Source: Escherichia coli
GTDB taxonomy: Bacteria > Pseudomonadota > Gammaproteobacteria > Enterobacterales > Enterobacteriaceae
DNA length: 64,000 nt
Assembly (NCBI RefSeq): GCF_044324875.1
Contig: NZ_CP172185.1
Direction: 5' to 3' (one strand)
The notes under the pieces were generated by a model that had not been told where the DNA came from, searched no databases, and saw only the letters and a list, made by a program, of their open reading frames with translations. The translations under genes and the position numbers were made by a program. Shown here piece by piece: positions 18,716 to 38,966 of this stretch; position 1 is the stretch's first letter; the number at the start of each line of letters is the position of its first letter.

Positions 18716-19890
18716 GAAACCCTCCCGAGCAGAATGCTGGCGTTATTGCCGCCAAAGGCGAAGGAATTGGACAGGATCACCGGACGTGCCAGCGGCTGTG
18801 GTTGTTCGATAATGCCGCACGGTGGCAGCGTGGGATCGCGCGGCGACAGGCTGAAGTCCTGAGCGGGCAGCGGTAAATCACGCTCTAAGATCAACATACT
18901 GATTGCCGCTTCGGTAATGCCCGCTGCGCCCAGCGTGTGTCCGGTCAAATGTTTGGTGGAGCTGCACGGTACGCGTTCGCCAAACAGGGCGTTTACCAGC
19001 ATCGATTCAATCTGGTCGTTGAGTTGTGTGGCGGTGCCGTGCAGGTTGATATAGCCCACCTCATCCGGCGTAAGCTGCGCATCAGCCAGCGCCTGGTTAA
19101 TGGCGCGAATTGCGCCTTCGCCCTGTGGATGCGGGGCCGAAATATGATAAGCGTCGCTCGATTCACCGACGCCCAGCAAGGCGATGGGCTGCGGTTCGCG
19201 GGTCAACAGCATCAGCCCCGCACCTTCGCCAATGGTGATGCCCGCGCGGTCACGACCAAACGGCTGACATAAGGTTGGCGAGAGCGATTCGAGGCTGTGA
19301 AAACCGTTAATCGGCATTCGGCTCAGGGTGTCTGCACCACCCACAATGGCGGCATCGACCAGCCCCGCCTCGATAAGCCTGCGCCCGCTGATCATCGCTC
19401 TGGCACTGGAGGAGCAGGCGGTTGAAAGGGTATAAGCTGGGCCGTCGAGCGCCAGCCAGTGGCTGAGAAAACGCGACGGATCGCCGAGCTCTTGTTGTGC
19501 ATAGTGCCACGTGGTGCTCGGCTGCCCGTGGGTGCGCAGGTTAACGTGCGTGTCGCCTTCATGCAGGCCGGAGGTGCTGGTGCCAAGCACAATCGCGATG
19601 CGCTCGCGGCCATATTTCGCAATAGCGTCATCAACCTGCGGCTGGATCTGCGCCAGCGCCGCCAGCAGGATCTGATTGTTGCGCGAGCGGTGCGCAGCGA
19701 ATTTTTCCGGGATAACCGGAAGCTCGCCATCCACGCCAGCCAGGACCGCCTGCGGATGCCCCTGCAACCAGCCTGCGCGCGGGCGCATGCCGGGAGCGAC
19801 ACCGCGAGTCAGGTTGGCTGCGATATCGTCAAGGTTATTTCCCAGGGCGTTGATCATGCCGACGGCGGAAATGTAAATCATATCAGTCAC
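18712..19890 (-). CDS. Beta-ketoacyl-ACP synthase (ApeO-like elongating ketosynthase)
   Basis: 392-aa ketosynthase with active-site Cys (STACSSS) and conserved His motifs. Confidence 0.8.
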   Translation of the reverse strand: MTDMIYISAVGMINALGNNLDDIAANLTRGVAPGMRPRAGWLQGHPQAVLAGVDGELPVIPEKFAAHRSRNNQILLAALAQIQPQVDDAIAKYGRERIAIVLGTSTSGLHEGDTHVNLRTHGQPSTTWHYAQQELGDPSRFLSHWLALDGPAYTLSTACSSSARAMISGRRLIEAGLVDAAIVGGADTLSRMPINGFHSLESLSPTLCQPFGRDRAGITIGEGAGLMLLTREPQPIALLGVGESSDAYHISAPHPQGEGAIRAINQALADAQLTPDEVGYINLHGTATQLNDQIESMLVNALFGERVPCSSTKHLTGHTLGAAGITEAAISMLILERDLPLPAQDFSLSPRDPTLPPCGIIEQPQPLARPVILSNSFAFGGNNASILLGRVS

Positions 19891-20467
19891 CTAAATATTG
19901 AATGGTGATGTGGTATTTAAAGACATGCTGTTCAATGCTGATTGGCACGCGTTTTCCCTGGCGATTCAGATAGGTGATTTCCGTGACCAGTTTGCCGCTG
20001 GCGTTACGCAGTTCGCGTTTGTCACCGTTGTCGCGAAGCGTCCATCCAGCGGGGAGTTGCGGTTGCCAGGCGCTAATCGGCCAGTGGCTAAGCATCACGT
20101 CAGCCAGCACCTGACTTGCGGGCGGCAACTGTGGGACGACGATGGATTGCTCGGCGCGTAGCCCTTGCGCATCGTAGGTCACCAGAAACAGACGAATGCC
20201 GACCGACGACAGCCCGGCAAGGGTGATTTTCTGGTCGTCGGCGTTAAGCATCACTAGCAGAGACTGGGTTTTGCCGTTGAAGCTGCCGCTCAATAGTTGC
20301 TGGGAATTAACGGCGGGCGAAATCCCTGGTGCCGGCAGCGTGATGCGCGTGCCAGGTTGCAGCCACGCCTGTGGGCGACCTTCCTGTTCCGGTTGCGAGT
20401 GGCTACAGCCGGTGAGGATAAGCGTAGCGGTCAGGGCGAACGCTCGCCAGAATGTGGGTTTGATCAT
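19883..20467 (-). CDS. Lipoprotein of the cluster export module (ApeN-like)
   Basis: Signal peptide with lipobox LTGC near the N-terminus; overlaps both flanking genes. Confidence 0.65.
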   Translation of the reverse strand: MIKPTFWRAFALTATLILTGCSHSQPEQEGRPQAWLQPGTRITLPAPGISPAVNSQQLLSGSFNGKTQSLLVMLNADDQKITLAGLSSVGIRLFLVTYDAQGLRAEQSIVVPQLPPASQVLADVMLSHWPISAWQPQLPAGWTLRDNGDKRELRNASGKLVTEITYLNRQGKRVPISIEQHVFKYHITIQYLGD

Positions 20468-22782
20468 TTTTTTGTTCTCTTTTTATCGGGCATAGCCAGC
20501 GGCGAAAGCAGGAAGGCGGTGAAAATACCGCTCACCAACACAATGCCAAAACTGCTGATGGCCTGGGTGGCGCTGAATACCAGCATTCCCAGCGCCAGCA
20601 AGGTGGTGAGCATTGCCAGCGTGATCGCCAGTAGGGAAGTTAACGGTGTACCGCGCGGATTACTGAAAAACAGCGTGTAATTGATGCCGATGCCAAGCAC
20701 CAGCACCAGCGCCAGTAGCGAAAAGAGATTCACCGCCTGCCCGCTCATCGCCAGCACTGCCAGACCGCAGCCCAGCGAAAGTACCGAAGGCACCAGGCTG
20801 ATAAGCCCTTTGCGCCAGCCGAGGCGGGCCACTGCGCCGCAGGCAATCACCGCCAGCGCCACCAGCAACAAACCGGTTAAGACGTAGCGGTAAAGTGCGA
20901 ACAACTCATCAAAGGTGCTTTTGCGATCAACCCAGGCAATGCCGCCAGGGTAATCGCTGGCGATTTCCTGCAACAACGCGCTACTTTTAACCCCTTCAAC
21001 CGGCACCAGTACGCCGCTTTCGCCGTTTTTCAGCGTCAGCCACAGCAGACGCCAGCCTTCACTGGCGGGGCTTGCCAGCCATTCATCGACCTTCACTGGC
21101 ATGGCGTTGAGATCCGGATTCACTGCCGCCAGCCCGGCATTTTGCAGTGCTTTTGTTACTGTCGGGGCAGCCGTTTTCAGCAGATGTAAATCTTCCTCCT
21201 GCCGCGCCAGGGAGTTCAGCGGAATGGTGCGGTAGTTGCTGATAAGCCCCTCTTTTTTCGCATTCTCCAGCGAGGCGGTAAATTTCTCCAGCCGCCGCAA
21301 TGTTTGCTGTGGAGAGTCGCCGTAAACTACAAACCATTTTTGATCGACGCTTTGTCCGGTCAGGGCGGTAATGGCTTTCTCTTGGGCCAGAATATGCTGC
21401 GGTAGCGCCTGTAACTGCGAGATATCGTCGTCGACGCGCAGCATTGACATCCCCGCCAGCGAAAACAGCGCCAGCGCGACGGGCAGACCCAGCGACAGTT
21501 TTTTATTACGCCGCCACGCAGCCAGCCAGCGCAGCATCAGCGCCATCGCCGGAACCGGACGCACCGGCAGGCCACGGCACAGCCACGGATGCCAGAACAG
21601 GACGGTCAGACAGGAGGCGCTCAACCCGACGGCGGCAAAAATCGCCATCTGGCGAATGCCGGGGAAGGGGGCGAGCATCATAATCAGATACGCCGCCACG
21701 GTGGTGAGCAGCGCCAGCAGCAGGGCATTGCGCACTTTCGCCAGGCTTTGCCACGGCGAAACGTCATTGCCGTGCACCATCCGCTCGGTGAGGTAATAGA
21801 GCGTGTAGTCAGCGGAAATGCCGATAACGCTCATGCTCATCACCAGCGTCATCAGGTGTAATTCGCCGAAAATCAACAAGGTGGCGACCGTTCCCGCCAG
21901 CGCGCCGATGCCGATGGAAATCACGCAAAGCAGCAATGGGCGTAAAGAGCGGAACACCGCCACAATCAGTAATATCACCCCCAGCAGCGTTGCCACGCCC
22001 AGGTTGGAGATATCCTGCTTCGCCTGTTGGCTGGCGTAATCGCTGTAAAACACCGTGCCGCGCGAGAGCAACTGCGCCTGCGGGTAACGCGTTTTCAGAT
22101 CCTTTTCCAGCGTATTCAGGGTCGTGATGAGCTGGTGGGTTTGCTGCATATCAAACGACGATCCCGCCAGTTCGCCGTGCAGCAGATACCAGTAGTTGCC
22201 CTGGGGATCCTGCGTCACCAGCCAGCCGTCCATCAGCCGCAAACGCTGGCCGTTTTTCGCCATCGCCAGCTGCGAGCCACGCATTAACATCAGCGGATCG
22301 TTTTGCAGCTCCTTACCGCTTACCCCGGAGAACGCAGAATAAAGCTGGGAGAGGATCCACTGCGCCTGCGCTTCGCCGCCGTTTTGCAGGCGCGCGCGGG
22401 TGTCGGGGTCAACCAGGCCGTTGCGGTGCTGCCAGAAAAACGCTCCCCACGCCTGCTGGCTGGCGGCATCCATTGGCCCTTTAACGTCGCCGAGCGCAGC
22501 GGATTTTTGCAGCAGCGTCAGCCACTCCTGAGCCACCCTGGGATTAGCCTCTTTACCGGGGCTGACCAGCCACACCAGTTGGCGGTCCAGACGCTGCATA
22601 AAGCCGTCATTCAGCGCTGGAGGAATATCGCCCATCGCCTGTTTGGGTAACATAGCCAGCACGCTACTGTTCAGTCGTGATTGCGGCAACAGGATCAGCA
22701 ACGCCGCCGCCATGACCAGGCAGACGATCCCCCATAACAGCGCCGGGCGTTTACTGGGCGGCAAAACGTTGGCGTTCGTCAT
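20464..22782 (-). CDS. MMPL/RND-superfamily exporter (ApeM-like)
   Basis: 772-aa protein with two blocks of transmembrane helices separated by large soluble domains, typical of MMPL-type lipid exporters. Confidence 0.8.
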   Translation of the reverse strand: MTNANVLPPSKRPALLWGIVCLVMAAALLILLPQSRLNSSVLAMLPKQAMGDIPPALNDGFMQRLDRQLVWLVSPGKEANPRVAQEWLTLLQKSAALGDVKGPMDAASQQAWGAFFWQHRNGLVDPDTRARLQNGGEAQAQWILSQLYSAFSGVSGKELQNDPLMLMRGSQLAMAKNGQRLRLMDGWLVTQDPQGNYWYLLHGELAGSSFDMQQTHQLITTLNTLEKDLKTRYPQAQLLSRGTVFYSDYASQQAKQDISNLGVATLLGVILLIVAVFRSLRPLLLCVISIGIGALAGTVATLLIFGELHLMTLVMSMSVIGISADYTLYYLTERMVHGNDVSPWQSLAKVRNALLLALLTTVAAYLIMMLAPFPGIRQMAIFAAVGLSASCLTVLFWHPWLCRGLPVRPVPAMALMLRWLAAWRRNKKLSLGLPVALALFSLAGMSMLRVDDDISQLQALPQHILAQEKAITALTGQSVDQKWFVVYGDSPQQTLRRLEKFTASLENAKKEGLISNYRTIPLNSLARQEEDLHLLKTAAPTVTKALQNAGLAAVNPDLNAMPVKVDEWLASPASEGWRLLWLTLKNGESGVLVPVEGVKSSALLQEIASDYPGGIAWVDRKSTFDELFALYRYVLTGLLLVALAVIACGAVARLGWRKGLISLVPSVLSLGCGLAVLAMSGQAVNLFSLLALVLVLGIGINYTLFFSNPRGTPLTSLLAITLAMLTTLLALGMLVFSATQAISSFGIVLVSGIFTAFLLSPLAMPDKKRTKK

Positions 22783-23356
22783 CGGTCAGTTGCGCTGGCG
22801 TCAGTTGATGTTGGGTAAGAGCGATATCGGTGCGATCGCCCTGTTTATCATTAAGCTGAATGCTCTCCAGATAGGTTTGCCCGGCGAGATCGATGGTGTT
22901 GAAAATTTTATCCAGCGGCGTGGTGGTCGGCGTCAGGCGCAGTGTCCAGCGGCCTTCGCCTTTGTCAGCAAATTCGACGCGGAAATTTTGTTCCAGCACT
23001 TTGCGATCGGCCTGGAACAGCGCGCGCAGCAGGTGGTTAAACTGGAACATCTGCGGGTTATTTTCTGCCGTGATGATTTGCGGCGGCTGACCGTTGATCA
23101 CCTGCACCATGCGTTTATCGTCCAGCAATAGTTGCATGGGAAATGGTGAGGTTTGATCCCACAACAGCCCCTGGTCGCGGGCGATCAACATCTGGCCCTG
23201 AGATCGTAGCGGCTGCGGCAGATCTTTAATCGTCCGGGTTTGATCGAAATGAGCGCGGATCACCGGCTGTTCGGTAAAGCGTTGCTGAAGATCGTCCAGG
23301 TTCAGGGCGCTCACAAACGGGCTAATCAGCAGCGCCAGCAGTGGTAAAAATTTCAT
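22751..23356 (-). CDS. LolA-like outer-membrane lipoprotein carrier family protein (ApeL-like)
   Basis: 201-aa secreted protein with a cleavable signal peptide; position next to the MMPL exporter. Confidence 0.65.
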   Translation of the reverse strand: MKFLPLLALLISPFVSALNLDDLQQRFTEQPVIRAHFDQTRTIKDLPQPLRSQGQMLIARDQGLLWDQTSPFPMQLLLDDKRMVQVINGQPPQIITAENNPQMFQFNHLLRALFQADRKVLEQNFRVEFADKGEGRWTLRLTPTTTPLDKIFNTIDLAGQTYLESIQLNDKQGDRTDIALTQHQLTPAQLTDDERQRFAAQ

Positions 23357-23775
23357 GGTTTGACTCCCATGCGTTCAAACAAAATATCGGGGCTGACAAA
23401 GCACAGTTCGCGGCTTTGCTCGTCGACCGCGACCTGAATGGTGTATCCGGTGGTGGCGCGTTTGCCCGTTTCGGCATCGAAAATCTGATAGCCAATCCGC
23501 AGACGGTTTTCGAACTCTTCGATATGTGCACGCACGCGGATGCGTTGCTCAAAGGTGAGGGCGTGGCGATATTTCACCCGCGCATCGACCACTGGCCACA
23601 AATAACCGGACTCTTTCATCTGCCGATAGCCGTAATTGAACTGGTTGAGCAGCGCCTCGCGGGCCACTTCAAAGTAGCGAAAATAGTTACCGTGCCAGGC
23701 CACGCCCATCATATCGACGTCGTGAAAGGGAATGGTCAGCTCGACTTCAGCGGTAAATCGGGGATCGTTAAGCAC
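23353..23775 (-). CDS. Hotdog-fold acyl-CoA/acyl-ACP thioesterase (4HBT-like; ApeK-like)
   Basis: 140-aa protein resembling YbgC/4-hydroxybenzoyl-CoA thioesterase family members. Confidence 0.7.
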   Translation of the reverse strand: MLNDPRFTAEVELTIPFHDVDMMGVAWHGNYFRYFEVAREALLNQFNYGYRQMKESGYLWPVVDARVKYRHALTFEQRIRVRAHIEEFENRLRIGYQIFDAETGKRATTGYTIQVAVDEQSRELCFVSPDILFERMGVKP

Positions 23776-23778
23776 CCT

Positions 23779-25455
23779 TTACTCCTTGTCCTGGACTTCC
23801 GGCAGTTGCCAGAAATCGAAAAAATTAAACCAGTCGAGGGGCGACTGGAGCGCGTAATGTTCCAGACGCGCGGCGTAATGATCGATAGCGTTTTGCAGCG
23901 CCTGCTGGCGTTCGCCACGCGGCAACAGCAGCGGGTCGGCAAAGGTTTCGCAGTGAATATGCAGCTTGCCGTGCTGGCGCAGGGCGAAAATCAGATTCAC
24001 CGGGCAGCGCAAAATAGACGCAAGAATAAACGGCCCCTGTGGGAAAGGCGCAGGCTGGCCCATAAACGGACTCCAGCAGACGCGCCAGTCGCCGCCGCGT
24101 TGCGGGTTGACGGCGATGCGGTCACCGACAATCGCCACCCATTCGCCGTTATCCAGCTTCTCTTTCAGCAGGATGGCGGTTTCCGGGCCGATATCTGTTA
24201 CCGGGAGCAGGTTGATGCCTGCCTGCGGGGCCATCTCCTGCATTATCTGTTTAAAGCGTTGGGCGTTTTCGCTAAACACCAGCGCGTTAATGGTTTTGTA
24301 GCCCTGAATTTTTGCCAGCGCCCGGCACACTTCCACATCGCCAAGATGCGAGGCCAGCAGCAATTTGCCGCGCGGATCGCTGACGTTAAGTGCCGCTTCT
24401 GCGCCTGGTGCAAACAGCACATCACGCCCGAGTTGCAGCTCGCCGCGCCAGCTGGCGATTTTGTCGAGCATGGCGTTGCCGAAACGTAGAAAATGCTGAT
24501 AGCTGTTGAGTTTTGCTGCCTGTGGTTGTTGTTGGCGCACACGGGCGAGCCAGTCTTGCGACGCTTTACGTGCACGAGCAGCGGTGAGCCAGTAGACGCC
24601 CACCACCGGGTAAAGCAGCGCGGTAAACGCAGTTCTTCCCAGCAGACGCCAGACCAGCAGCATCAGGCGCATTCCCCATAACCCTTTCACTTCGCTCTGC
24701 CGCGCCCAGTGGCTGGAAGAGTGGCGCATCAGCAGTGAAGGAATACGCGGCAACATGCCGAAAAACAGACGTGTGTGCATCAGCGAGATGCGGACGTTAT
24801 CTTTCAGGGCATCAAAATGCGAAAGCCCGTCCAGCGGATAGGTGACGCGGGTCGGCACGAAATAACTGGTATTTCCCTGCCAGTAGAGGCGCACCATCAC
24901 TTCGGTGTCAAAATCCATCCGCTTGCCGATGGTAGCGTATTTTGCCAGTTGCAGCGTTGGCGCAACCGGATAAACGCGAAAGCCGCACATACTGTCTTTC
25001 AGTTGCAGGGAGAGCGTTTCGATCCATACCCACACGTGGGTGACCCAGCGCCCGTACAGCCGTGAGCGGGGGATGGAGTCATCGTAAATCGGCTGGCCGG
25101 AGATCAGCGCCGCAGGCTGCTGTTCAGCGAGTGCCAGCAGTTTAGGGATGTCTTCAATCGCGTGCTGACCGTCAGCATCCACCTGCACCGCATGGCTGAA
25201 GCCCGCGTCTGCCGCTGCCTGTAAGCCACGCATCACTGCCGCGCCTTTGCCTGCGTTTTCTGCCAGGCGAATTAAGGTCACGCCAGGCTGTTCGGCAACC
25301 AGATTATCCAGTTGCTGTTGCGTGGCGGCATCGCTGCCGTCATCCACTACAATACAGGGCAGATTAAATGGCTTAAGACGCGCCAGCACGCCCGGCATCA
25401 TCGCGCCGTGGTTGTAGCAGGGGATCAACACGCAGGGAGAAAAGTTTACCGACAT
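23779..25455 (-). CDS. Bifunctional glycosyltransferase family 2 / lipid A-type acyltransferase fusion (ApeJ-like)
   Basis: 558 aa: N-terminal GT-A fold features (VDDGSDAAT, DADGQH) followed by a C-terminal domain resembling lauroyl/myristoyl (HtrB/LpxL-type) acyltransferases. Confidence 0.7.
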   Translation of the reverse strand: MSVNFSPCVLIPCYNHGAMMPGVLARLKPFNLPCIVVDDGSDAATQQQLDNLVAEQPGVTLIRLAENAGKGAAVMRGLQAAADAGFSHAVQVDADGQHAIEDIPKLLALAEQQPAALISGQPIYDDSIPRSRLYGRWVTHVWVWIETLSLQLKDSMCGFRVYPVAPTLQLAKYATIGKRMDFDTEVMVRLYWQGNTSYFVPTRVTYPLDGLSHFDALKDNVRISLMHTRLFFGMLPRIPSLLMRHSSSHWARQSEVKGLWGMRLMLLVWRLLGRTAFTALLYPVVGVYWLTAARARKASQDWLARVRQQQPQAAKLNSYQHFLRFGNAMLDKIASWRGELQLGRDVLFAPGAEAALNVSDPRGKLLLASHLGDVEVCRALAKIQGYKTINALVFSENAQRFKQIMQEMAPQAGINLLPVTDIGPETAILLKEKLDNGEWVAIVGDRIAVNPQRGGDWRVCWSPFMGQPAPFPQGPFILASILRCPVNLIFALRQHGKLHIHCETFADPLLLPRGERQQALQNAIDHYAARLEHYALQSPLDWFNFFDFWQLPEVQDKE

Positions 25456-25829
25456 AGGCGGATCTTCCCGCTACTGGCGGTGTGGCGGGCGTCACCGTCG
25501 TGACGCTGATAGCTAAAGCTCAGAATCTGGCGTTCTTCCTGCCAGTTAAGCGTGAGCGTGACGCGGTTGTCCGGCAGCAACGGGGACTGGAATTTGATGT
25601 TCTGAATAGAGTGAAAACGCCAGCCAGGCGCGAGCAGAGTGAGCGCGTAGCTCATCGCCCAGTCGATTTGTGCAACTCCTGGGAGTAACGGCTGCACGGC
25701 AAAATGGCCGCGAAACCAGAACAGATCTGCCCTGAGATGCAAAACAATCTCAAGGTGATTCGCTTGTGCCTGATGGCGCTCGATTTCATGGGGCTTCATG
25801 AAATAACTCCTGTAATTGCGCATAGACAC
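25446..25829 (-). CDS. Hotdog-fold dehydratase (ApeI-like)
   Basis: 127-aa hotdog-like protein overlapping both neighbours. Confidence 0.6.
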   Translation of the reverse strand: MSMRNYRSYFMKPHEIERHQAQANHLEIVLHLRADLFWFRGHFAVQPLLPGVAQIDWAMSYALTLLAPGWRFHSIQNIKFQSPLLPDNRVTLTLNWQEERQILSFSYQRHDGDARHTASSGKIRLCR

Positions 25830-27147
25830 GCTTGTTCATACTGTTTACTGGCATTTCATCAATAACGCGCCAGTAACGCGGAATAGCAACTGGCTCCAGC
25901 GTCGGGCGCAGTAATCGCCGCCAGGTCATTTCCTGGCTATGCCCGCCGCCGTTCTGCCATTGCAGGCGAGCTTCGTCATCCAGCACCAGCAAAACGCCGA
26001 TGCTCTGACGCCCGCCGCGCGTAACGGGAACTGCCGCCGCCTCGCGAATGCCGTCCAGCGCCAGCAGACGTTGTTCTACTTCCTGCAGAGAAATACGTTT
26101 TTCTTCAATCTTAACGATGCGCCCACGACGCCCCATCAGATGGAACTGACCGTCCTGGCTAAACTGCAAGAGATCATCGAGTAACAGGCCGTTATCTTCC
26201 GCTATCAGCGGTGAAAAGAGACGAAATGCTTCACCTTCGGCCTGGAAGTGCATACCTGGAAAGGGCAGCCAGCGGCGTTGCTCTTGTTCGCGGTAACGCC
26301 AGGCAATGACGCCGGTTTCCGTGCTGCCGTAGATTTCATCAGGCCAGACGCGCAGCCAGCTCGCGGTGTGTTTTACGTCCTGCCACGGCAGCTCACCGCC
26401 AGCAGAGAGAAGCACCTGAACGGGCGGCGGAGAAAGCTGGGTATCCAGCCGTTTCAAAAATGCCGGGCTGCTGATGAAGATATAGCGATGCTGGTGACTC
26501 AATGCGGCAAACTGTTCGACATACCAGAGCATGGCGGCGTGCAGCGGTAATCCCAGCGCCATTGGCAGGAAAACGCGAAAAGTCAGGCCGTACAGATGCT
26601 GCGGCAATACGGAACCGACGACACGACATCCGGCAAGACGTGCGCCTAATCGTTCAGCCAGCAGTTCTGCTTCACGGTCCAGCAAATGAACAGGTTTAAT
26701 TACCCGCTTTGGCTGCCCCGTAGAACCGGAGGTAAATAGCTCGATATAAGCGTCTGGCGCTATAGCGGCAAAGGTGAATGATTGTGTCGCGACTTGTGGG
26801 GAACTTGCTACCAACAGCAATGAACCTTGCCAGTTAAGATCGCTGTCGCTAAGTACACCATCGAACAGTTCACGTTGTTCATTAAGCTGGATGACACGGT
26901 TATGCCCCGGAAGCACCGGCGTTTTTCCGGCGTGTAGCGTGGCAAGCAGGGCAACGATAAACAAATAACTGTTCTCAAAGCACAGCGCCCAGCGTTCACC
27001 CGGCTGTTGCTGCAAGCGGCAGATAAGTTGCGCGACATCGTGACGCAAATCGCCCAGTGTCCACGAGCTTTCGTCCAGCCACGCAATGGGCGTGTCATCA
27101 GGGCGTGGCGCAGTCAGCCAGCGTGCAAGCGGTAAGGTCTGCTTCAT
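25786..27147 (-). CDS. AMP-dependent synthetase/ligase, acyl-ACP synthetase-like (ApeH-like, likely aryl starter activation)
   Basis: Adenylate-forming enzyme motifs (TSGSTGQPK AMP-binding motif); start set at the ATG at 27147, immediately after the upstream gene stop, rather than the ORF-track start at 27186. Confidence 0.75.
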   Translation of the reverse strand: MKQTLPLARWLTAPRPDDTPIAWLDESSWTLGDLRHDVAQLICRLQQQPGERWALCFENSYLFIVALLATLHAGKTPVLPGHNRVIQLNEQRELFDGVLSDSDLNWQGSLLLVASSPQVATQSFTFAAIAPDAYIELFTSGSTGQPKRVIKPVHLLDREAELLAERLGARLAGCRVVGSVLPQHLYGLTFRVFLPMALGLPLHAAMLWYVEQFAALSHQHRYIFISSPAFLKRLDTQLSPPPVQVLLSAGGELPWQDVKHTASWLRVWPDEIYGSTETGVIAWRYREQEQRRWLPFPGMHFQAEGEAFRLFSPLIAEDNGLLLDDLLQFSQDGQFHLMGRRGRIVKIEEKRISLQEVEQRLLALDGIREAAAVPVTRGGRQSIGVLLVLDDEARLQWQNGGGHSQEMTWRRLLRPTLEPVAIPRYWRVIDEMPVNSMNKRVYAQLQELFHEAP

Positions 27148-27725
27148 GAGCGATCTCTTTTTATCACCTGACGGCGCACCAGCCATTCACCTGCCATTAA
27201 CGTTCCCATCAAAAAATAAGCAATCATGCCGTTCCAGGCGGTCCATAACGACATATCGCCATAAAGCGCGGTAAAGAGGGCAATTCCGCCGTTAATGATG
27301 AAAAAGCCGCACCAGATTTGCGTGACACGGCGGGTATAGCGCACGCCCTTTTCCGGGAGGTCTGGCTCCTGCAAACGTGCCAGCCGCTCAACTATCGGCA
27401 TTGTCGACCACAGCGAACCGCCAAAAACCGCCAGCATGATCGCGTTAACCACTACCGGGTAAAACAGCAGTAGCTGGTGCGTTTTCAACAGAAAGCTGGC
27501 GACACACAATGCGATGCCCACGACAGCGACGATTTGTGTGACGGCTTGTAGCGGCCCCGCCCGGCGACGGGTCTGGCGCAGGCGCAACAATAGCAGCAAC
27601 GCTATTAGCGGCAACAACCAGTGCAGGCCGTTATGCGCCAGGCCAAACCAAATCACAAACGGCCAGGCGAGCAGCAATAATCCAGTCAGCAGCTTAATCA
27701 TCGGTAGCGAGCGAATGCCCGACAT
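27144..27725 (-). CDS. Integral membrane protein of the cluster (ApeG-like)
   Basis: 193-aa hydrophobic protein with several predicted transmembrane helices. Confidence 0.6.
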   Translation of the reverse strand: MSGIRSLPMIKLLTGLLLLAWPFVIWFGLAHNGLHWLLPLIALLLLLRLRQTRRRAGPLQAVTQIVAVVGIALCVASFLLKTHQLLLFYPVVVNAIMLAVFGGSLWSTMPIVERLARLQEPDLPEKGVRYTRRVTQIWCGFFIINGGIALFTALYGDMSLWTAWNGMIAYFLMGTLMAGEWLVRRQVIKRDRS

Positions 27726-27729
27726 CAGA

Positions 27730-27981
27730 TCAGGCTTCTTGTAGCAGGCGTTCTACAGCCTCTACGACATCCTGAACTGTGCGCACTGCTTTAAACTCTT
27801 CCGGCTTGATTTTCTTACCGGTTTTCTTTTGCAGGTGCACAATCATGTCAACGGCGTCGATGCTGTCCAGTTCCAGATCTTCGTACAGGCGCGCTTCAGG
27901 TTTGATGTCCTGCGGATCGATTTCAAACAGCTTAACCAGCAGGGCTGAGACTTCCTGATAGACGGTTTGTTGTTCTGTCAT
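27730..27981 (-). CDS. Acyl carrier protein (second of a tandem pair; ApeF-like)
   Basis: 83-aa protein with the phosphopantetheine attachment motif LELDSIDAVD. Confidence 0.85.
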   Translation of the reverse strand: MTEQQTVYQEVSALLVKLFEIDPQDIKPEARLYEDLELDSIDAVDMIVHLQKKTGKKIKPEEFKAVRTVQDVVEAVERLLQEA

Positions 27982-27992
27982 GATGGCTTTCC

Positions 27993-28250
27993 TCAGGCGC
28001 GTTGCGCAGCAATGAAAGAGGCCAGAGTGGCGACGGAGAAAAAGTGCTGACGCATCTCTTCGCTTTCGGCTGAGAGCACCACGCCGTACTCATTTTTTAC
28101 TGCCAGTCCCAGTTCCAGGGCATCGATGGAATCCAGTCCTAAACCGTCGCCGAACAGCGGCGCATCGGTCTCGATATCATCAGGAGTCAACTCGTCCAGA
28201 TTGAGGGTGCTGATGATGAGGTTTTTAATTTCCAGATAAAGCGCTTGCAT
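27993..28250 (-). CDS. Acyl carrier protein (first of a tandem pair; ApeE-like)
   Basis: 85-aa protein with motif LGLDSIDALEL around the conserved Ser. Confidence 0.85.
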   Translation of the reverse strand: MQALYLEIKNLIISTLNLDELTPDDIETDAPLFGDGLGLDSIDALELGLAVKNEYGVVLSAESEEMRQHFFSVATLASFIAAQRA

Positions 28251-29064
28251 TATTTATTCCTGAGAGAGGTAAACAACCTTGTTGTAATAGAAGCAAAAGA
28301 TGCCGGTTTAACTGCCTTGCTGCCAGCGCCGGTTCTTGTGAAGTTGCATCGTAAAATTTATTGATTTCAACCCGACCATGGACTTCAACCGTAAAAAACG
28401 GCCGGTCAGGTGGAACGTCATACCATTTACTTTGTTTATCCAGCAGATGCTCGCTACAGCCGATCGTCACGATGCGTAAATCGCTGGCACAGCGCACGGC
28501 AATATTCGCCGCCCCGCGCTGCAGCGTCATTTTTTCACCGGGCTTCGTTCGCGTGCCTTCGGGGAAAATCAGGATAGTGTCACCCTGTGCCAGTCGCTGT
28601 TGGCAGCGGGGTAACAGGGTTTCAGCTTCGCTGTTGATTAAATAATCTACCGCCCGCACGACGCCGCCAAGAAAAGGATTTTTTAACAGCGCGCTTTTCA
28701 CCAGGCAGTCAGTTTCTGGCATGACTGACGCCAGCAGCACGTAATCGATCAGCGTGGGATGATTGGCTACGACGAGGCAACCGCGTTCCTGACGTAAAAT
28801 TTCAGCGCCATCAATACGATAATCCAGCACGCCAAGCCCTTTCGCGACAGTTAAAAACAGGCGAAAACTGGCGGCAATGCTGCGACGCGCCAAACGACGG
28901 CGGCGGGAAGTATCCCACACCAAAACTAACAATATGTTAAACCACACGACAGAAAGCAGCAGGCCGCCGAGACCAAACAGGGCAAAACATAACCCGGTCA
29001 TGACCAGTCGCCAGGTCCACTCCAGACGTGACATCAGCTTACTCATCTGCGGCTCCAGCGCCAT
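28225..29064 (-). CDS. Lysophospholipid acyltransferase family protein (PlsC/LPLAT-like; ApeD-like)
   Basis: N-terminal transmembrane segment and acyltransferase motifs (NHPTLIDY, FPEGTR). Confidence 0.75.
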   Translation of the reverse strand: MALEPQMSKLMSRLEWTWRLVMTGLCFALFGLGGLLLSVVWFNILLVLVWDTSRRRRLARRSIAASFRLFLTVAKGLGVLDYRIDGAEILRQERGCLVVANHPTLIDYVLLASVMPETDCLVKSALLKNPFLGGVVRAVDYLINSEAETLLPRCQQRLAQGDTILIFPEGTRTKPGEKMTLQRGAANIAVRCASDLRIVTIGCSEHLLDKQSKWYDVPPDRPFFTVEVHGRVEINKFYDATSQEPALAARQLNRHLLLLLQQGCLPLSGINNASALSGN

Positions 29065-29789
29065 TGCACGCGCTCGCCAGGCAGTGAAAATGCGTCTGCA
29101 TTTTGTAAATAATGCTGTAAAAACAACATGCTTTGCGGCAGTGATGTTTCATTGCCCGCAATGGCTGACTGCGTTTCACATTGCCAGTCATCGCCAGATT
29201 CAATCACCAGCGCGACGGCGTACGGCCAGGTCGGCATTTCTGATGGCAGTTGTGGGTGATAAAACTCGGGCAGAAAACCGTCAAAATCGACCATCAACAC
29301 GCGCTGGTATCCCGCTTGTAACAGGCTAAGCACTTCACACAAACCTTGCTGGAAAGTGTCGCGACCAGCAGAAAGCGATGACGAAACTATCGGCTGTTTG
29401 GCCGCAATGGTCAGGTTACCCACGGAAGAGTTGTGTACGGAGAGCGCGAAGTCGGTCGGAGAAAGCGCCTGTTCGGTTGCCAGTGCATGAACAATGCGGT
29501 AATTGCGCTCCAGTTCGCCATGACGACTGGTATACAAAACGGCGTCTGGCTGATGGCGGCGTAGCATTGCCAGACCGCATTCAACAGCCAGTTTGCTGCC
29601 TGAACTAAGGCGGCGGGCGGTCATCATTGGCAGTTCACTTAATTTTGCCAACGGCGCGGCAGGGTCAATCGCCCACGGCTGGCGCGACCATGCTTGCCAT
29701 TGCTGCGCTTCGCTAAGTCCAGGCGCCAGTGCCTGCCAGTCGGTAATATTTAATGTAAATTTCATCAACGCGCGCCCGCGGTAAACCAA
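29043..29789 (-). CDS. Ketosynthase-related protein lacking an obvious active-site Cys (chain-length-factor-like; ApeC-like)
   Basis: 248-aa protein with thiolase-fold similarity, shorter than a canonical KS; pairs with the upstream KS in this cluster type. Confidence 0.6.
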   Translation of the reverse strand: MVYRGRALMKFTLNITDWQALAPGLSEAQQWQAWSRQPWAIDPAAPLAKLSELPMMTARRLSSGSKLAVECGLAMLRRHQPDAVLYTSRHGELERNYRIVHALATEQALSPTDFALSVHNSSVGNLTIAAKQPIVSSSLSAGRDTFQQGLCEVLSLLQAGYQRVLMVDFDGFLPEFYHPQLPSEMPTWPYAVALVIESGDDWQCETQSAIAGNETSLPQSMLFLQHYLQNADAFSLPGERVQWRWSRR

Positions 29790-29805
29790 AATTATTAAGT
29801 GACGA

Positions 29806-30873
29806 TTATTTCTTTTGGCATATCAAAAGTGTATGCCCAACGCCTAAATTATCGTGGCGCTCTGCTACCTGGAATCCTGCTTTATTCAGATAGTCGTAAA
29901 ATTTCTCTGCACTATAGAAACGGCTGTTACCGTTTGCCATGCAGGTAAAATAAAGTGAGGACGCGTTCAGGCTAAATGATGCTGCTTCAAACCGCTGCGC
30001 ATCCCAGAACAACTCCATGATGCAAACTTTTGCGCCAGGCTTCATTACGCTGGCGATTTTGCTGAGTATGCTAATTATTTGTTCGGGTGAAAAACAGTCT
30101 AAAAATTGGCTCATCCACCAGATATCAGCCTCGCCCGGTAATGGGGCATCGCTTAGCATATCCACCGCATGGAAATCTATGCGATCAGAAAAACCTGCAT
30201 TCGCGATATTTTCTTTCGCTAGTACGATTTGTTGTGGCAGATCTAATAACGTCACGGCGATGTTTTCATTGTATTTGCAGCAACGCAAAGCCCACTTACC
30301 CGTATTGCCGCCTACATCGTACAATGTTGTGGGGTTGTTGGCGAATACATAAGGCAGTGCGGCGTTAAATGCGCCATCTGAATAGTAATGATCAAACGCA
30401 AACCAGCTTTCACGAGCGGCGTCTGGTAATTGTGAAAGTGCCGGATATATCGTCGACCAGTCGCCAAATACTTTTAACCCGGACGGTTTTCCTTCATTGA
30501 GTGAATCGGCGAGGAAGAAGAGCCCCTGGTAACAGACATCCTGGGTGAAATCCATATTCACGCGAGTCATAGTGTCATGCAGGAGGTAATGACCGATTTT
30601 CGCCAGGTAATACATTCCCTCTTTACAGGTAATAATTCGCCCGCTTAAGCCCATATCTAACAGAACGCTGGCCGCATATTCGTTGATATGGCTATGTTCG
30701 GTGATATCAGCCAGCGTTGCGCCATGTTTGCCTTGCCGATCCAGATATGAAAGTACACCCGCATTACGTAGGCAGAGTGCTGTTTGAAAAAGCATAGGGG
30801 CAAAGGCAATGCGTTGAGCTTCGGTAATCGCATCCAGTGCGCTAAGAGAATCCTGTTCGTACATGTTGGGCAC
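29806..30873 (-). CDS. SAM-dependent O-methyltransferase (ApeB-like)
   Basis: 355 aa with a class I methyltransferase Rossmann motif (LYDVGGNTG). The ORF-track start is a GTG at 30873; the ATG at 30864 is an alternative. Confidence 0.75.
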   Translation of the reverse strand: MPNMYEQDSLSALDAITEAQRIAFAPMLFQTALCLRNAGVLSYLDRQGKHGATLADITEHSHINEYAASVLLDMGLSGRIITCKEGMYYLAKIGHYLLHDTMTRVNMDFTQDVCYQGLFFLADSLNEGKPSGLKVFGDWSTIYPALSQLPDAARESWFAFDHYYSDGAFNAALPYVFANNPTTLYDVGGNTGKWALRCCKYNENIAVTLLDLPQQIVLAKENIANAGFSDRIDFHAVDMLSDAPLPGEADIWWMSQFLDCFSPEQIISILSKIASVMKPGAKVCIMELFWDAQRFEAASFSLNASSLYFTCMANGNSRFYSAEKFYDYLNKAGFQVAERHDNLGVGHTLLICQKK

Positions 30874-30932
30874 AACCTGTTAAGAGGGAATTAAATTATT
30901 ATCGGACCGCAGCGGCCCGACTTTAGGAAGAA

Positions 30933-31322
30933 TTATAAATCTGCGCCCGCTGACAAATTCAGTTGAATATCTTTGTCGAGATTGCGGACCCAGCGATTGT
31001 AGTTTTTATGAATTTGTCCGCCTGACGCTTGTAGGTTCTGGCTATTTTCATAATTGATATCGTAGCTGGATGCCGTGTAGTTAATGCGAATTTCGGCTGA
31101 ATGATCGCGTGACTGTTGACGTGCTTTAATTACGCCTTGTCCGGCTTCGGACATAATCCATTTGCGTTCAACGCCAGCTTTCAGAATCGCTTTTTTCACT
31201 TGTTCCTGGGTATGACCAGCGCTGACGGTTGAGTGAACCTGATCAATTGGCGCAGTACGCGCGCAACCCGCTAAAGCACCCACAACAGCAATAGCCGCAA
31301 ACCATTTCATGTAATGTCTCAT
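30933..31322 (-). CDS. Small lipoprotein, first gene of the cluster (ApeA-position)
   Basis: 129-aa ORF with signal peptide and lipobox LAGC; AT-rich promoter-like region upstream. Confidence 0.6.
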   Translation of the reverse strand: MRHYMKWFAAIAVVGALAGCARTAPIDQVHSTVSAGHTQEQVKKAILKAGVERKWIMSEAGQGVIKARQQSRDHSAEIRINYTASSYDINYENSQNLQASGGQIHKNYNRWVRNLDKDIQLNLSAGADL

Positions 31323-31651
31323 TAGAACCCCATTAAAGTATTGTTTTTACGAGTAAAGCAAGATTTAACTGTAATTGCTGGCATCACTATTCTTTATTTA
31401 GCGAAAAAATTACTTGTGAGATAAGTCAGTAAGTGCACATCAGAGTAAAAATTTCTGAAATGACTAAATTACTGCCAGCGGGGACCAACTATAAGTGAGT
31501 GAGAAAAATGAGGCAATAAAAATAACACAATGTTATCAGTGCATTCTTTGAGAAGGATTTAATCGCTATTCGGCGTTTATATATATTTGACTTAAGGAAT
31601 GGTTTTTATAAATTAATTGTCTGAATAATGTTTCTTCATTTCCTCAAATCA

Positions 31652-31682
31652 AATGGCCACTGTTAGATAAACGGTGGCCATT
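31652..31682 (-). terminator. Hairpin (AATGGCCAC ... GTGGCCATT) 20 bp downstream of the yhhT stop; candidate intrinsic terminator
   Basis: 9-bp perfect inverted repeat with 13-nt loop read from the sequence, followed on the transcribed strand by a T-rich tract. Confidence 0.4.
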
Positions 31683-32068
31683 GCCTGCTCAGGAGGTGCT
31701 ATTAACCCGGTAATCGACTTTTCGGTCTGCCCGGTCCCAGTAAAATCGCCAGTTTGCTACCGCCTTTGGTGGTTTCCATCCAGATTTTACACACGCTGGT
31801 TAATGGTACCGAAAGTAGCATCCCTACCGGGCCGAGCAGCCATCCCCAAATTAACAATGAAAGAAATACCACCATGGTGGACATCCCCAGGCGATGGCCC
31901 ATCATCCGTGGTTCTAAAATATTGCCGATGACCATATGGACCACTAAAAACAATGCGCCGACCAGAATACATTCGTAAACGCCATTAAACAGCAGCACCT
32001 GAATCATTGGCGGGGTGATGCTGCCAACTTACTGATTTAGTGTATGATGGTGTTTTTGAGGTGCTCCA

Positions 32069-32344
32069 GTGGCTTCTGTTTCTATCAGCTGTCCCTCCTG
32101 TTCAGCTACTGACGGGGTGGTGCGTAACGGCAAAAGCACCGCCGGACATCAGCGCTATCTCTGCTCTCACTGCCGTAAAACATGGCAACTGCAGTTCACT
32201 TACACCGCTTCTCAACCCGGTACGCACCAGAAAATCATTGATATGGCCATGAATGGCGTTGGATGCCGGGCAACTGCCCGCATTATGGGCGTTGGCCTCA
32301 ACACGATTTTACGTCACTTAAAAAACTCAGGCCGCAGTCGGTAA
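32069..32344 (+). CDS. insA: IS1 InsA protein
   Basis: 91-aa ORF starting [32 protein letters not shown] (zinc-finger/HTH region of InsA). Confidence 0.95.
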
Positions 32345-32766
32345 CCTCGCGCATACAGCCGGGCAGTGACGTCATCGTCTGCGCGGAAATGGACGAACAG
32401 TGGGGCTATGTCGGGGCTAAATCGCGCCAGCGCTGGCTGTTTTACGCGTATGACAGGCTCCGGAAGACGGTTGTTGCGCACGTATTCGGTGAACGCACTA
32501 TGGCGACGCTGGGGCGTCTTATGAGCCTGCTGTCACCCTTTGACGTGGTGATATGGATGACGGATGGCTGGCCACTGTATGAATCCCGCCTGAAGGGAAA
32601 GCTGCACGTAATCAGCAAGCGATATACGCAGCGAATTGAGCGGCATAACCTGAATCTGAGGCAGCACCTGGCACGGCTGGGACGGAAGTCGCTGTCGTTC
32701 TCAAAATCGGTGGAGCTGCATGACAAAGTCATCGGGCATTATCTGAACATAAAACACTATCAATAA
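32263..32766 (+). CDS. insB: IS1 InsB reading frame (expressed as the InsAB' transposase by -1 frameshifting)
   Basis: 167-aa frame overlapping insA in the -1 frame, ending IKHYQ; standard IS1 organisation. Confidence 0.9.
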
Positions 32767-33647
32767 GTTGGAGTCATTACCCATTGGCGGTACGGCGGAA
32801 ATTACCGCGCCGATATTGGGCACGTAGTTGAGCAAAAACGCCAGTACTGCCCACATCAGCGCAAACTGTACGCCCATTAGCGCCAGCCCCAGCCAGACGA
32901 TTACGCCTGTCCATAAACTTAGCAGCGTCTTTAACGCCAGATAATGCGAAACACCTTTTAAGGCGCGGTGTAGTCCGGCGATGTGAATCTGTGGATTATT
33001 CAACGCAAAACGCATTTTGTAAGGGACGTGGCGCACTTCAAACAGCATGAAAACTACGGTCATCACCAGCAAAAGCACGCTCGCCATTGCCCCGGAAAGC
33101 CCGGTCATTAGCGCCGTGGTGAAGGTAACCACTTTTTCCGAGTCCATCCGCTGCAGCATTCGCTCCGGTGACATATGCAAATTAAGAAAAGGCAACATCT
33201 CCTGCAATTTAAAAAGTTTGCGCGTTAGCTCCTTATTAAACTTCGGCAGCATAGAGATAAATTCGTTAAACGATGCCGCCAGTACGCCAACCAGCGCGGT
33301 TAGTGCGATCAGCATCACCACCACCACAATCGTAATGGCAACGGGGCGTTGTACTCCCCGACGAATAAACCAGGTGACGAGCGGGTTGAGGACGATGGCA
33401 AAAAACAGCGCCAGTAACAGCTGCACAATGATATCTGCCGCTGCGTGAATTCCCGCGAGGATCACTACCAGCGAGGCCAGCTTGAGCAGAATGTGCATGC
33501 CCGTTTTATCGGGTTGAGGGGTTTCCATTGGGGCTTCCTTGTGACTTTTTGTATTAAGTGTAGCGGGAGTCACGCCAGCAATATTCTGATTCTTACTGCT
33601 GATTTTCACGTCAGCACGTGGTAAAAATGAAACACTGTTGTAAAAAT

Positions 33648-34865
33648 GTGGTGATCCTCATGCCCGAACCCGCGCTAAACGGATTGCGCCTGAATTTGCG
33701 CATTGTCTCCATTGTCATGTTTAACTTCGCCAGCTACCTCACCATCGGGTTGCCGCTCGCTGTATTACCGGGCTATGTCCATGATGTGATGGGCTTTAGC
33801 GCTTTCTGGGCAGGATTGGTTATCAGCCTGCAATATTTCGCCACCTTGCTGAGCCGCCCTCATGCCGGACGTTACGCCGATTTGCTGGGACCCAAAAAGA
33901 TTGTCGTCTTCGGTTTATGTGGCTGCTTTTTGAGCGGTCTGGGATATCTGACGGCAGGATTAACCGCCAGTCTGCCCGTCATCAGCCTGTTATTACTTTG
34001 CCTGGGACGCGTCATCCTTGGGATTGGGCAAAGTTTTGCCGGAACGGGATCGACCCTGTGGGGCGTTGGCGTGGTTGGCTCGCTGCATATCGGGCGGGTG
34101 ATTTCGTGGAACGGCATTGTCACTTACGGGGCGATGGCGATGGGTGCGCCGTTAGGTGTCGTGTTTTATCACTGGGGCGGCTTGCAGGCGTTAGCGTTAA
34201 TCATTATGGGCGTGGCGCTGGTGGCCATTTTGTTGGCGATCCCGCGTCCGACGGTAAAAGCCAGTAAAGGCAAACCGCTGCCGTTTCGCGCGGTGCTTGG
34301 GCGCGTCTGGCTGTACGGGATGGCGCTGGCACTGGCTTCCACCGGATTTGGCGTTATCGCCACCTTTATCACGCTGTTTTATGACGCTAAAGGTTGGGAC
34401 GGTGCGGCTTTCGCGCTGACGCTGTTTAGCTGTGCGTTTGTCGGTACGCGTTTGTTATTCCCTAATGGCATTAACCGTATCGGCGGCTTAAACGTGGCGA
34501 TGATTTGCTTTAGCGTTGAGATAATCGGCCTGCTACTGGTTGGCGTGGCGACTATGCCGTGGATGGCGAAAATCGGCGTCTTACTGGCGGGGGCAGGGTT
34601 TTCGCTGGTGTTCCCGGCATTGGGCGTAGTGGCGGTAAAAGCGGTTCCGCAGCAAAATCAGGGGGCGGCTCTGGCAACCTACACCGTATTTATGGATTTA
34701 TCGCTTGGCGTGACCGGACCACTGGCTGGGCTGGTGATGAGTTGGGCGGGCGTACCGGTGATTTATCTGGCGGCGGCGGGACTGGTCGCAATCGCGTTAT
34801 TACTGACGTGGCGATTAAAAAAACGGCCTCCGGAACACGTCCCTGAGGCCGCCTCATCATCTTAA
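33648..34865 (+). CDS. yhhS: MFS-family transporter
   Basis: 12-TM MFS protein. Start is uncertain: in-frame GTG at 33648 (405 aa, the length I recall for the K-12 protein), ATG at 33660, or the ORF-track start at 33618. Confidence 0.75.
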   Translation: MVILMPEPALNGLRLNLRIVSIVMFNFASYLTIGLPLAVLPGYVHDVMGFSAFWAGLVISLQYFATLLSRPHAGRYADLLGPKKIVVFGLCGCFLSGLGYLTAGLTASLPVISLLLLCLGRVILGIGQSFAGTGSTLWGVGVVGSLHIGRVISWNGIVTYGAMAMGAPLGVVFYHWGGLQALALIIMGVALVAILLAIPRPTVKASKGKPLPFRAVLGRVWLYGMALALASTGFGVIATFITLFYDAKGWDGAAFALTLFSCAFVGTRLLFPNGINRIGGLNVAMICFSVEIIGLLLVGVATMPWMAKIGVLLAGAGFSLVFPALGVVAVKAVPQQNQGAALATYTVFMDLSLGVTGPLAGLVMSWAGVPVIYLAAAGLVAIALLLTWRLKKRPPEHVPEAASSS

Positions 34866-34868
34866 AAC

Positions 34869-35426
34869 TTACTGAATAACCAGCGTATTAATGATGTTTT
34901 CTGCGGTGGTCTGCGCTTTTTGCTGATCGTCAGCGGGCAGCGTAATTTGCATGGTCAGCAGTTGATTACCCACGTTACCCAGAATAACGGAAGAGTACGC
35001 CGTCTGGCCTTTCGCGGAGATAATGCTGTCTAACTGCTGCATTTTGTGACCTTTCAGCTCAATGGCTTTATTGGTTACCACTTGCAGCTGCGGATCGCGG
35101 CTACGTTGCTGATCTTCCAGACGCTTCGCCAGCACCGCCAGATCTTCTTTCGGGTCATCGCCCATGATGACGATGACTGCTTTCTGCCCGGTGGCATCGG
35201 ACCAGACATGCATGTTATTGGCCTGCGTTCCCAGCTTACCGCTCTGGTCGGTCATATCCGCTGGCAGCGAGAAACTTAACTTGCCATCAAGCAGGTTGAC
35301 GGGATTCCCGGTAGCGTTACTTTCCGCGACCGAACCCTGCGCCGTAGCGTTAGTGTCTTTATCATCACAGGCCGCAAGCCCCATAACCAGCAGGCCAATT
35401 CCGACATATTTAACCAGATTGCGCAT
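34869..35426 (-). CDS. dcrB: Periplasmic lipoprotein DcrB
   Basis: 185-aa product starting [22 protein letters not shown] (lipobox LAAC). Confidence 0.85.
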
Positions 35427-35498
35427 TGACTTCTTCCTTTCGATAAACGGCCATAACGGCTCATTCATCCATCTTATCACAACTCTGATAACGAACCT

Positions 35499-36164
35499 TT
35501 AACTCGCCTGCAAAGCGTTGATTTCAGATTTATCTGCCAGTCTTTTCAACAGCATATTGAGTAATACGCCATACATTGGCAGGAAGAAAACGATACTGAT
35601 TAACACTTTGAAACAGTAATCGACCAGCGCGATTTCCATCCAGTGTTCAGCCATAAAGGCATCGGGGCTACGCCAGAAGGCAATGAAGAAGAAGGCCAGT
35701 GTGTCGCTGACGTTACCGAACAGTGTGGACGCTGTCGGTGCCAGCCACCAGCGGCGACTCTGACGCAGGCGGTTAAAAACGTGCACGTCGAGGATCTGGC
35801 CCAGCGCGTAGGCCATGAAACTGGCGGTGGCGATACGGGCGACAAACAGGTTGAAGTGAGCGAGTGCGCCGAATCCCTGCCAGGAGCCCATATAGAACAG
35901 CGACGAGATGACGTAGGAGATCAGCAACGCCGGGATCATCACCGCAAAGATGATACGACGGGCCAGCGGTGCGCCAAAAATACGCACAGTCAGGTCGGTA
36001 GCAAGGAAAATAAACGGAAAGCTAAACGCGCCCCATGTGGTATGGAAACCAAAAATGGAGACGGGAAGCTGAACCAGATAGTTACTGGAGGTGATCACCA
36101 GAAGATGAAATAACGATAACCAGAACAACGCCTTATAGCGTTGCGTTTGCGAGAAAACGTTCAT
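35499..36164 (-). CDS. yhhQ: Queuosine-precursor transporter family membrane protein
   Basis: 221-aa polytopic membrane protein at the conserved position between dcrB and tusA. Confidence 0.85.
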   Translation of the reverse strand: MNVFSQTQRYKALFWLSLFHLLVITSSNYLVQLPVSIFGFHTTWGAFSFPFIFLATDLTVRIFGAPLARRIIFAVMIPALLISYVISSLFYMGSWQGFGALAHFNLFVARIATASFMAYALGQILDVHVFNRLRQSRRWWLAPTASTLFGNVSDTLAFFFIAFWRSPDAFMAEHWMEIALVDYCFKVLISIVFFLPMYGVLLNMLLKRLADKSEINALQAS

Positions 36165-36385
36165 ATTGTACCTTTTTGATTAACCATTGGGGTGAGGGAA
36201 CCCAATACGTACGACACGCTATTTTACCTTGATTAAATAACGTTCTTACCCTTTTTTCGAGCCGCCGCATGATACTGCTTTACGTTGACAATGCAATGGT
36301 TAATTTTCACGCAATCGTTAACCTGGTTTGCTTACGGACTCACAGGGCGTAAACTAGCGCCGTTTTTTTAAGTGATGAGAAGAAA

Positions 36386-38931: not shown

Positions 38932-38966
38932 GGCATCCTCCGGTTAAGTTTTTTCTCATTAACCGA

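Follow-up and report, generated by a model that had tools for sequence, protein, structure and literature searches.

Tandem acyl carrier proteins ApeE and ApeF of an Escherichia coli aryl-polyene gene cluster and their probable activation by AcpT

Introduction

What do two small acyl carrier protein (ACP) genes carry when they lie side by side on the chromosome of Escherichia coli, with a phosphopantetheinyl transferase (PPTase) gene, acpT, at the distal end of the same gene array, and which enzyme activates them? The original prediction for this locus held that both ACPs are probable substrates of AcpT, with the remark that tandem ACPs of type II systems often divide starter and elongation roles. 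The pathway to which our analysis leads is that of the aryl polyenes (APEs), which are membrane pigments from one of the most widespread bacterial biosynthetic gene cluster families. In pathogenic E. coli they have been connected with biofilm formation and with protection from oxidative stress. The locus was studied within a stretch of 64,000 nucleotides from E. coli (contig NZ_CP172185.1 of RefSeq assembly GCF_044324875.1), which is called the window below. All positions refer to this window unless another locus is named.

Results

Two tandem carrier proteins

Both ACP genes are intact minus-strand reading frames with an ATG start, and they are separated by only 11 nt (Table 1). A Shine-Dalgarno-like AGGA lies 5' of the 85-aa gene. 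The 83-aa gene is preceded by a Shine-Dalgarno-like GAGGA, which overlaps the stop codon of the 85-aa gene. The PP-binding family PF00550 has a curated cut-off of 20.8 bits, and both proteins exceed it, with 50.4 bits (E 2.6e-13) for the 83-aa protein and 32.3 bits (E 1.2e-7) for the 85-aa protein. The sequence LDSIDA is present in both and supplies the attachment serine, at residue 41 of the 85-aa protein and residue 40 of the 83-aa protein. These two residues align with Ser36 of mature AcpP (Ser37 when the initiator Met is counted). The analysis confirmed that the tandem ACP pair is not a chance feature. Two adjacent small ACPs with a DSI motif had been predicted here, and the prediction held with exact coordinates. 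Two other ORFs fall within the ACP genes, one antisense on the plus strand (27779-27958) and one nested on the minus strand (27932-28093); both were taken as chance ORFs.

The closest solved structures are of two A. baumannii proteins. For the 85-aa protein the top match is 9LS6, the A. baumannii ApeE, with an E value of 9e-25 and 56% identity, and the second match reaches only E 6e-4, which is 21 orders of magnitude weaker. For the 83-aa protein the top match is 9L1V, the A. baumannii ApeF, with an E value of 5.7e-19 and 45% identity. Both entries are NMR structures of proteins from carbapenem-resistant A. baumannii (Lee 2025, PMC12624758), to which the two window proteins stand as orthologues. 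In that work ApeE is defined by a glycine-rich motif, by a glycine in helix 2 and by inserted residues in two loops, alpha1-alpha2 and alpha2-alpha3. The 85-aa protein carries these hallmarks, namely the glycine-rich FGDGLGLDS before helix 2, the glycine inside helix 2 (ALELGLA), and insertions of 3 and 6 residues relative to the 83-aa protein, in alignment columns that match those of A. baumannii ApeE. Ser41, the pattern G-x-G-L-G-L-D-S, the mid-helix-2 glycine and both loop insertions are common to the window and A. baumannii proteins, with LDE and SAE in the insertions of the former and LED and NAE in those of the latter. The motif is named 'DSL' in PMC12624758, whereas the sequences of both species read DSI. 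The 83-aa protein lacks both insertions and is encoded directly 3' of the 85-aa gene. Based on these sequence relationships, the 85-aa protein is identified as ApeE and the 83-aa protein as ApeF of the E. coli aryl-polyene cluster. By its position after the acyltransferase gene Z4852, apeE is Z4853 of O157:H7, and apeF corresponds to Z4854.

ApeE and ApeF of the window are 30% identical to each other. ApeE is also 30% identical to A. baumannii ApeF, and it is 26% identical to AcpP. Because each of the two proteins resembles its Acinetobacter orthologue more closely than its neighbor, the pair is read as an ancient, specialised duplication, and on these identities ApeE and ApeF are anciently diverged, functionally distinct paralogues, not recent duplicates. 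The acidic helix-2 start of AcpP, D-S-x-D-x-x-[D/E], is kept in both proteins, and neither of them reaches the curated cut-offs of the AcpP equivalog models.

Gene array around the carrier proteins

Nineteen co-directional minus-strand genes lie between yhhT and nikA, and the reading frame is intact in all 19 (Table 1). Neighboring genes in the array are spaced by -32 to +68 nt, with an overlap at eleven junctions, among them the successive junctions of apeO, apeP, apeQ and apeR at -4, -1 and -4 nt. When compared with Table 1 of PMC8253772, all 18 genes from apeA to apeR follow the order of the CFT073 cluster, gene for gene. The APE core set (apeO/apeR, apeC, apeE/apeF, apeI/apeP, apeQ, apeM and apeH) is present and intact. 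By its gene content and order, the array is identified as an aryl-polyene gene cluster, the one called O-island 138 in O157:H7. The original prediction was right to set the ACPs beside AcpT but missed the aryl-polyene identity of the cluster.

Table 1. Genes of the aryl-polyene cluster in the window, in order of transcription.
Gene	Position	Strand	Product	Basis or remark
apeA	30933-31310	-	small lipoprotein	first gene; O157 annotation, order per PMC8253772
apeB	29806-30864	-	SAM-dependent O-methyltransferase	PF00891
apeC	29043-29765	-	ketosynthase-like chain-length factor	PF13723, E 3.9e-67; 'chain length factor' in 042 annotation
apeD	28225-29046	-	lysophospholipid acyltransferase	PF01553, 042 annotation; 26-nt overlap with apeE start
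apeE	27993-28250	-	85-aa acyl carrier protein	Ser41 in GLGLDSIDA; NF006617, 90.1 bits (cut-off 70)
apeF	27730-27981	-	83-aa acyl carrier protein	Ser40 in LELDSIDA; NF003757, 146 bits (cut-off 65)
apeG	27144-27725	-	193-aa membrane protein	placed by gene order (PMC8253772 Table 1)
apeH	25786-27147	-	adenylating acyl-ACP synthetase	PF00501; position and role per PMC8253772 Table 1
apeI	25446-25799	-	dehydratase	PF22818 (ApeI-like), E 2e-40
apeJ	23779-25455	-	glycosyltransferase/acyltransferase	PF00535
apeK	23353-23775	-	thioesterase	acyl-CoA thioesterase in 042 annotation
apeL	22751-23356	-	LolA-like, export module	042 and O157 annotation; frame intact
apeM	20464-22782	-	MMPL transporter, export module	042 and O157 annotation; frame intact
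apeN	19883-20467	-	DUF3261, export module	042 and O157 annotation; frame intact
apeO	18712-19881	-	ketosynthase	NF006618; intact
apeP	18251-18715	-	dehydratase	042 annotation; intact
apeQ	17520-18251	-	ketoreductase	042 annotation; intact
apeR	16294-17523	-	ketosynthase	NF006587; intact
acpT	15705-16292	-	Sfp-type 4'-phosphopantetheinyl transferase, 195 aa	nineteenth and last gene of the array

The product of apeG gave no match in Pfam and NCBIfam profile searches; in the literature it is COG4648. ApeH weakly resembles 4-coumarate and benzoate ligases, and it is predicted to load 4-hydroxybenzoate onto ApeE. From the gene packing and the conserved adjacency described below, we infer a putative single operon running from apeA through apeR to acpT. 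A consensus scan of 15400-32100 found 14 promoter-like sites against 10.5±3.2 in shuffled sequence and 27 terminator-like sites against 20.6±4.8, counts that are no different from those of shuffled sequence. In a microarray experiment, several O-island 138 genes shifted together in an rpoS mutant.

The known systems nearest to this array are found in other E. coli strains. O-island 138 of O157:H7 EDL933 (Z4853/Z4854 and AcpT) occupies the same locus, in the order yhhT, island, acpT and nikA, and holds the same 18+1 genes; the nucleotide identity is approximately 97%, and each protein differs by one or two conservative substitutions. The amino acid identity to O157:H7 is 98% for ApeE, approximately 99% for ApeF and 98% for AcpT. 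In EDL933, the annotations of Z4850-Z4854 read, in turn, methyltransferase, unknown function, acyltransferase, ACP and ACP. The island is 99.9% identical to that of strain 042, and the window differs from O157:H7 in its background and in an IS1 within yhhT. The CFT073 cluster, APE_Ec, in which ApeE and ApeF are c1200 and c1199 (Cimermancic 2014; Johnston 2021, PMC8253772), has the identical apeA-apeR order and the same predicted functions, and it made an aryl polyene on heterologous expression (PMC8253772). In Nissle 1917, a B2 strain and ST73 relative of CFT073, ApeE is 94% identical to that of the window, and apeE and apeF together show approximately 95% nucleotide identity.

acpT and its junction with apeR

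The ATG of acpT lies 1 nt 3' of the apeR stop codon (TGG CCC TGA T ATG; TGAtATG). As originally predicted, acpT sits at the distal end of the ACP gene array, as the last of 19 genes. The ORF list contains a GTG-initiated acpT ORF of 235 aa; this was rejected, and the real gene is the 195-aa form that starts with ATG. The protein scores 395.5 bits with the NCBIfam equivalog NF007676 (cut-off 174) and is also matched by PF01648. It is 98% identical to the AcpT of K-12 as well as that of O157. In an alignment to Sfp (1QR0), the GKP, SHSG, D-I-E and W-x-x-KE-x-x-x-K motifs are conserved. D91-I-E93 and W133-T-R-K-E137 of AcpT align with D107/E109 and K150/E151 of Sfp.

Distribution of the cluster and of acpT

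The survey of E. coli covered 5426 complete genomes. The enteroaggregative strain 042 and many other isolates share the ACP region of the window at 100% identity, and the region was found in 824 of the 5426 genomes; in seven records the ACP pair is matched twice. All but one of the genomes (5425) have acpT. Three states can be told apart in the population. A contiguous apeR-acpT junction occurs in 569 genomes, approximately 255 (824 minus 569) have apeE/apeF without this junction, and approximately 4600 (about 85%) have an orphan acpT only, preceded by a 19-nt remnant of apeR.

How did acpT become an orphan in most of the species? In all the island-less genomes sampled, the match runs past the acpT ATG by exactly 20 nt, which corresponds to the spacer nucleotide and the last 19 nt of apeR. 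The match ends at query position 608 in every one of them, with 16293-16311 of the window facing 8950-8969 of the K-12 locus. The remnant upstream of acpT in K-12 and other island-less E. coli includes the apeR stop codon. Because these matches all end at one nucleotide, they indicate that a single ancestral deletion of apeA-apeR would have orphaned acpT. A deletion of this kind agrees with the title of De Lay & Cronan 2006.

The linkage extends to other enterobacteria. Citrobacter koseri, Klebsiella aerogenes, K. oxytoca, Enterobacter hormaechei and Kosakonia also have acpT directly behind apeR, with 1-3 nt between the two genes. Downstream of acpT lies the nik operon in C. koseri and the arn operon in Klebsiella, Enterobacter and Kosakonia. 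The linkage is thus kept with two different flanks, and therefore acpT travels with the cluster and not with the flank. In the latter three genera, the apeR-acpT end abuts the arn-type operon (aminoarabinose lipid A modification) in convergent orientation. Salmonella enterica has yhhT-acpT, an orphan arrangement like that of K-12.

Among the E. coli genomes with the cluster and without the junction, Nissle 1917 was the one inspected. Its cluster lies at another locus (2066-17087 of that locus), with a garD pseudogene on one side and a degraded haemagglutinin/two-partner-secretion region on the other, and no acpT is adjacent, in contrast to the contiguous acpT of the window. A search for an acpT remnant 3' of the Nissle 1917 apeR found none, and the similarity to the window ceases with the apeR stop codon. 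The APE cluster of CFT073 has been described as having no dedicated PPTase (PMC8253772), and we relate this description to a locus of the Nissle 1917 type, which is without acpT.

Flanking sequence

Several other features of the window were observed beside the cluster. An IS1 of 768 bp (32014-32781), with insA/insB on the plus strand, interrupts yhhT, the gene next to the APE cluster on its upstream side. The element is bordered by a 9-bp target duplication, CATTGGCGG, at 32005-32013 and 32782-32790. yhhT is intact in 042, O157:H7 and K-12, and the combination of the island with IS1 in yhhT was found in no complete E. coli genome of the collection. The identity to 042 is 99.9% over 11700-32013, from nikD through the APE island, and approximately 97.6-98.2% over 32782-44612, to the right of IS1. 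The drop in identity at IS1 may mark a mosaic or recombination boundary. Further away, minus-strand ORFs of 392, 164 and 94 aa at 60354-62757, between yhhY and ggt, are absent from 042; we take them to resemble the variable yhhZ-yrhA-yrhB region of K-12. The tusA-zntA interval measures approximately 115 bp in the window (36622-36738) and approximately 570 bp in 042 (24157-24727), where it includes a 309-bp hypothetical gene.

Discussion

The combined evidence makes it very probable that ApeE and ApeF are dedicated carrier proteins of the APE pathway and are activated by AcpT, in the following scheme as a whole. As suggested by the O157:H7 proteins, AcpT would use CoA to attach 4'-phosphopantetheine to ApeE at Ser41 and to ApeF at Ser40. 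By analogy to the Xenorhabdus and Acinetobacter orthologues, holo-ApeE would take 4-hydroxybenzoate from ApeH. The ApeE-bound polyene would then grow, again as in the orthologous systems, through condensation by ApeR or ApeO:ApeC, reduction by ApeQ and dehydration by ApeI/ApeP. Holo-ApeF would most likely be malonylated by the housekeeping FabD to give extender units; in E. coli, ApeF is partly dispensable. Finally, ApeD and ApeJ would attach the finished chain to a lipid, and ApeL, ApeM and ApeN would export it.

Then, is AcpT the enzyme that activates the two carrier proteins, and do they serve aryl polyene synthesis at all? AcpT was identified in O157:H7 EDL933 and activates ApeE/ApeF homologues in vitro, according to De Lay & Cronan 2006 (Mol Microbiol 61:232) as cited in PMC8253772. 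The ACPs of the window are 98-99% identical to these O157:H7 proteins, and through this identity the cited report lends support to the original prediction that both are AcpT substrates. In the openly readable literature, no link between AcpT and aryl polyenes was found beyond one paragraph in PMC8253772. Because A. baumannii AcpS converts ApeE and ApeF of the same species to the holo form in vitro (PMC12624758), the exclusivity of AcpT is not established. The housekeeping AcpS, or AcpS and AcpT redundantly, might activate ApeE and ApeF in vivo, and the adjacency of acpT would then be functionally unnecessary. In addition to the Acinetobacter reaction, the B2-type E. coli cluster without an adjacent PPTase and the AcpP-like acidic start of helix 2 in both ACPs are consistent with such a role of AcpS. 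However, the reaction in question was a preparative in vitro conversion and not a test of specificity, and it is AcpT that is reported, in the citation above, to modify the O157 homologues. That six species, with two kinds of chromosomal surroundings, all retain acpT within 1-3 nt of apeR also argues against an unnecessary adjacency. As for the cluster without an adjacent PPTase, acpT is missing from just one of the complete E. coli genomes, and therefore APE-carrying strains, as well as a K-12 heterologous host, still have acpT in trans. We consider it unlikely that AcpS makes acpT dispensable. In a tentative reading to which we give slightly less than even weight, acpT would truly belong to the APE operon as its nineteenth gene, would be translationally coupled to apeR and would encode the PPTase required in vivo for ApeE/ApeF. 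An entirely different role follows from the original annotation of O-island 138 as a second fatty-acid-synthase-like system, with ACPs for ordinary fatty-acid or lipid A-related synthesis. The annotations FabG2, FabZ-family and beta-ketoacyl-ACP synthase would fit this role, as would the suppression of a lipid A-deficient yejM mutant by acpT when this gene is over-expressed (PMC8745692). Such a role is nevertheless highly improbable in view of the gene set and order, which are those of the CFT073 cluster that made an aryl polyene in a heterologous host. The Pfam families specific to ApeI and ApeP are present, as are an adenylating enzyme of the aryl-acid type and an O-methyltransferase, and the scores of both ACPs under the AcpP equivalog cut-offs point in the same direction.

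The division of labour between the two carrier proteins can be judged from orthologues and from E. coli deletion mutants. In the orthologous A. baumannii system, ApeH selectively engages and loads ApeE, the preferred starter ACP, whereas FabD malonylates ApeF, the shallow cavity of which was read as fit for malonyl transfer (PMC12624758). Xenorhabdus doucetiae follows the same logic, with ApeH loading 4-hydroxybenzoate preferentially on ApeE (Grammbitter 2019, JACS, as cited in PMC8253772 and PMC12624758). In E. coli CFT073, deletion of apeE resulted in no pigment, whereas deletion of apeF left partial pigment and pigmented intermediates, and apeF was not needed for the APE carboxylic acid; in the view of the authors, ApeF is not strictly required and is not the starter loader in vivo (PMC8253772). 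The starter versus elongation split of the original prediction matches this orthologue work and the CFT073 deletions, with the part of ApeF in dispute. As the starter and growing-chain carrier, ApeE is well supported. ApeF is a proposed malonyl carrier whose role is disputed, the candidates being an extender carrier, a second-chain carrier and partial redundancy. For X. doucetiae ApeF, the papers of one group differ between a malonyl carrier and a carrier of a conjugated fatty acid. In a preprint based on Xenorhabdus APE-lipid structures and deletion mutants (10.1101/2020.12.19.423268), ApeF is proposed as the carrier of a conjugated fatty acid, the second chain in the final lipid. ApeD would then move this chain onto lysophosphatidylglycerol, and the two ACPs would be split between two products and not between starter and extender. 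The pigmented intermediates and the APE carboxylic acid that form without ApeF in CFT073 are consistent with this proposal, as is the closeness of apeF to apeD and apeE. On the other hand, the conjugated fatty acid is a postulate of the preprint, and the malonylation of Acinetobacter ApeF by FabD together with its shallow cavity favors a malonyl carrier. We regard the second-chain role as unlikely and keep the malonyl carrier as the proposed function of ApeF.

The relationship between the ACPs and AcpT and the division of labour between ApeE and ApeF are already known, and both in vitro modification by AcpT and deletion of the individual ACPs are largely published for near-identical proteins or orthologues. 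What our analysis adds is modest, namely the apeR-acpT linkage across enterobacterial genera and the states of the cluster in the E. coli population. If acpT is indeed the PPTase required in vivo, Nissle 1917 (and presumably CFT073) as well as K-12 heterologous hosts would depend on the orphan acpT in trans for APE. The identity of the enzyme that activates the APE carrier proteins is relevant to heterologous production and to inhibition of the pathway.
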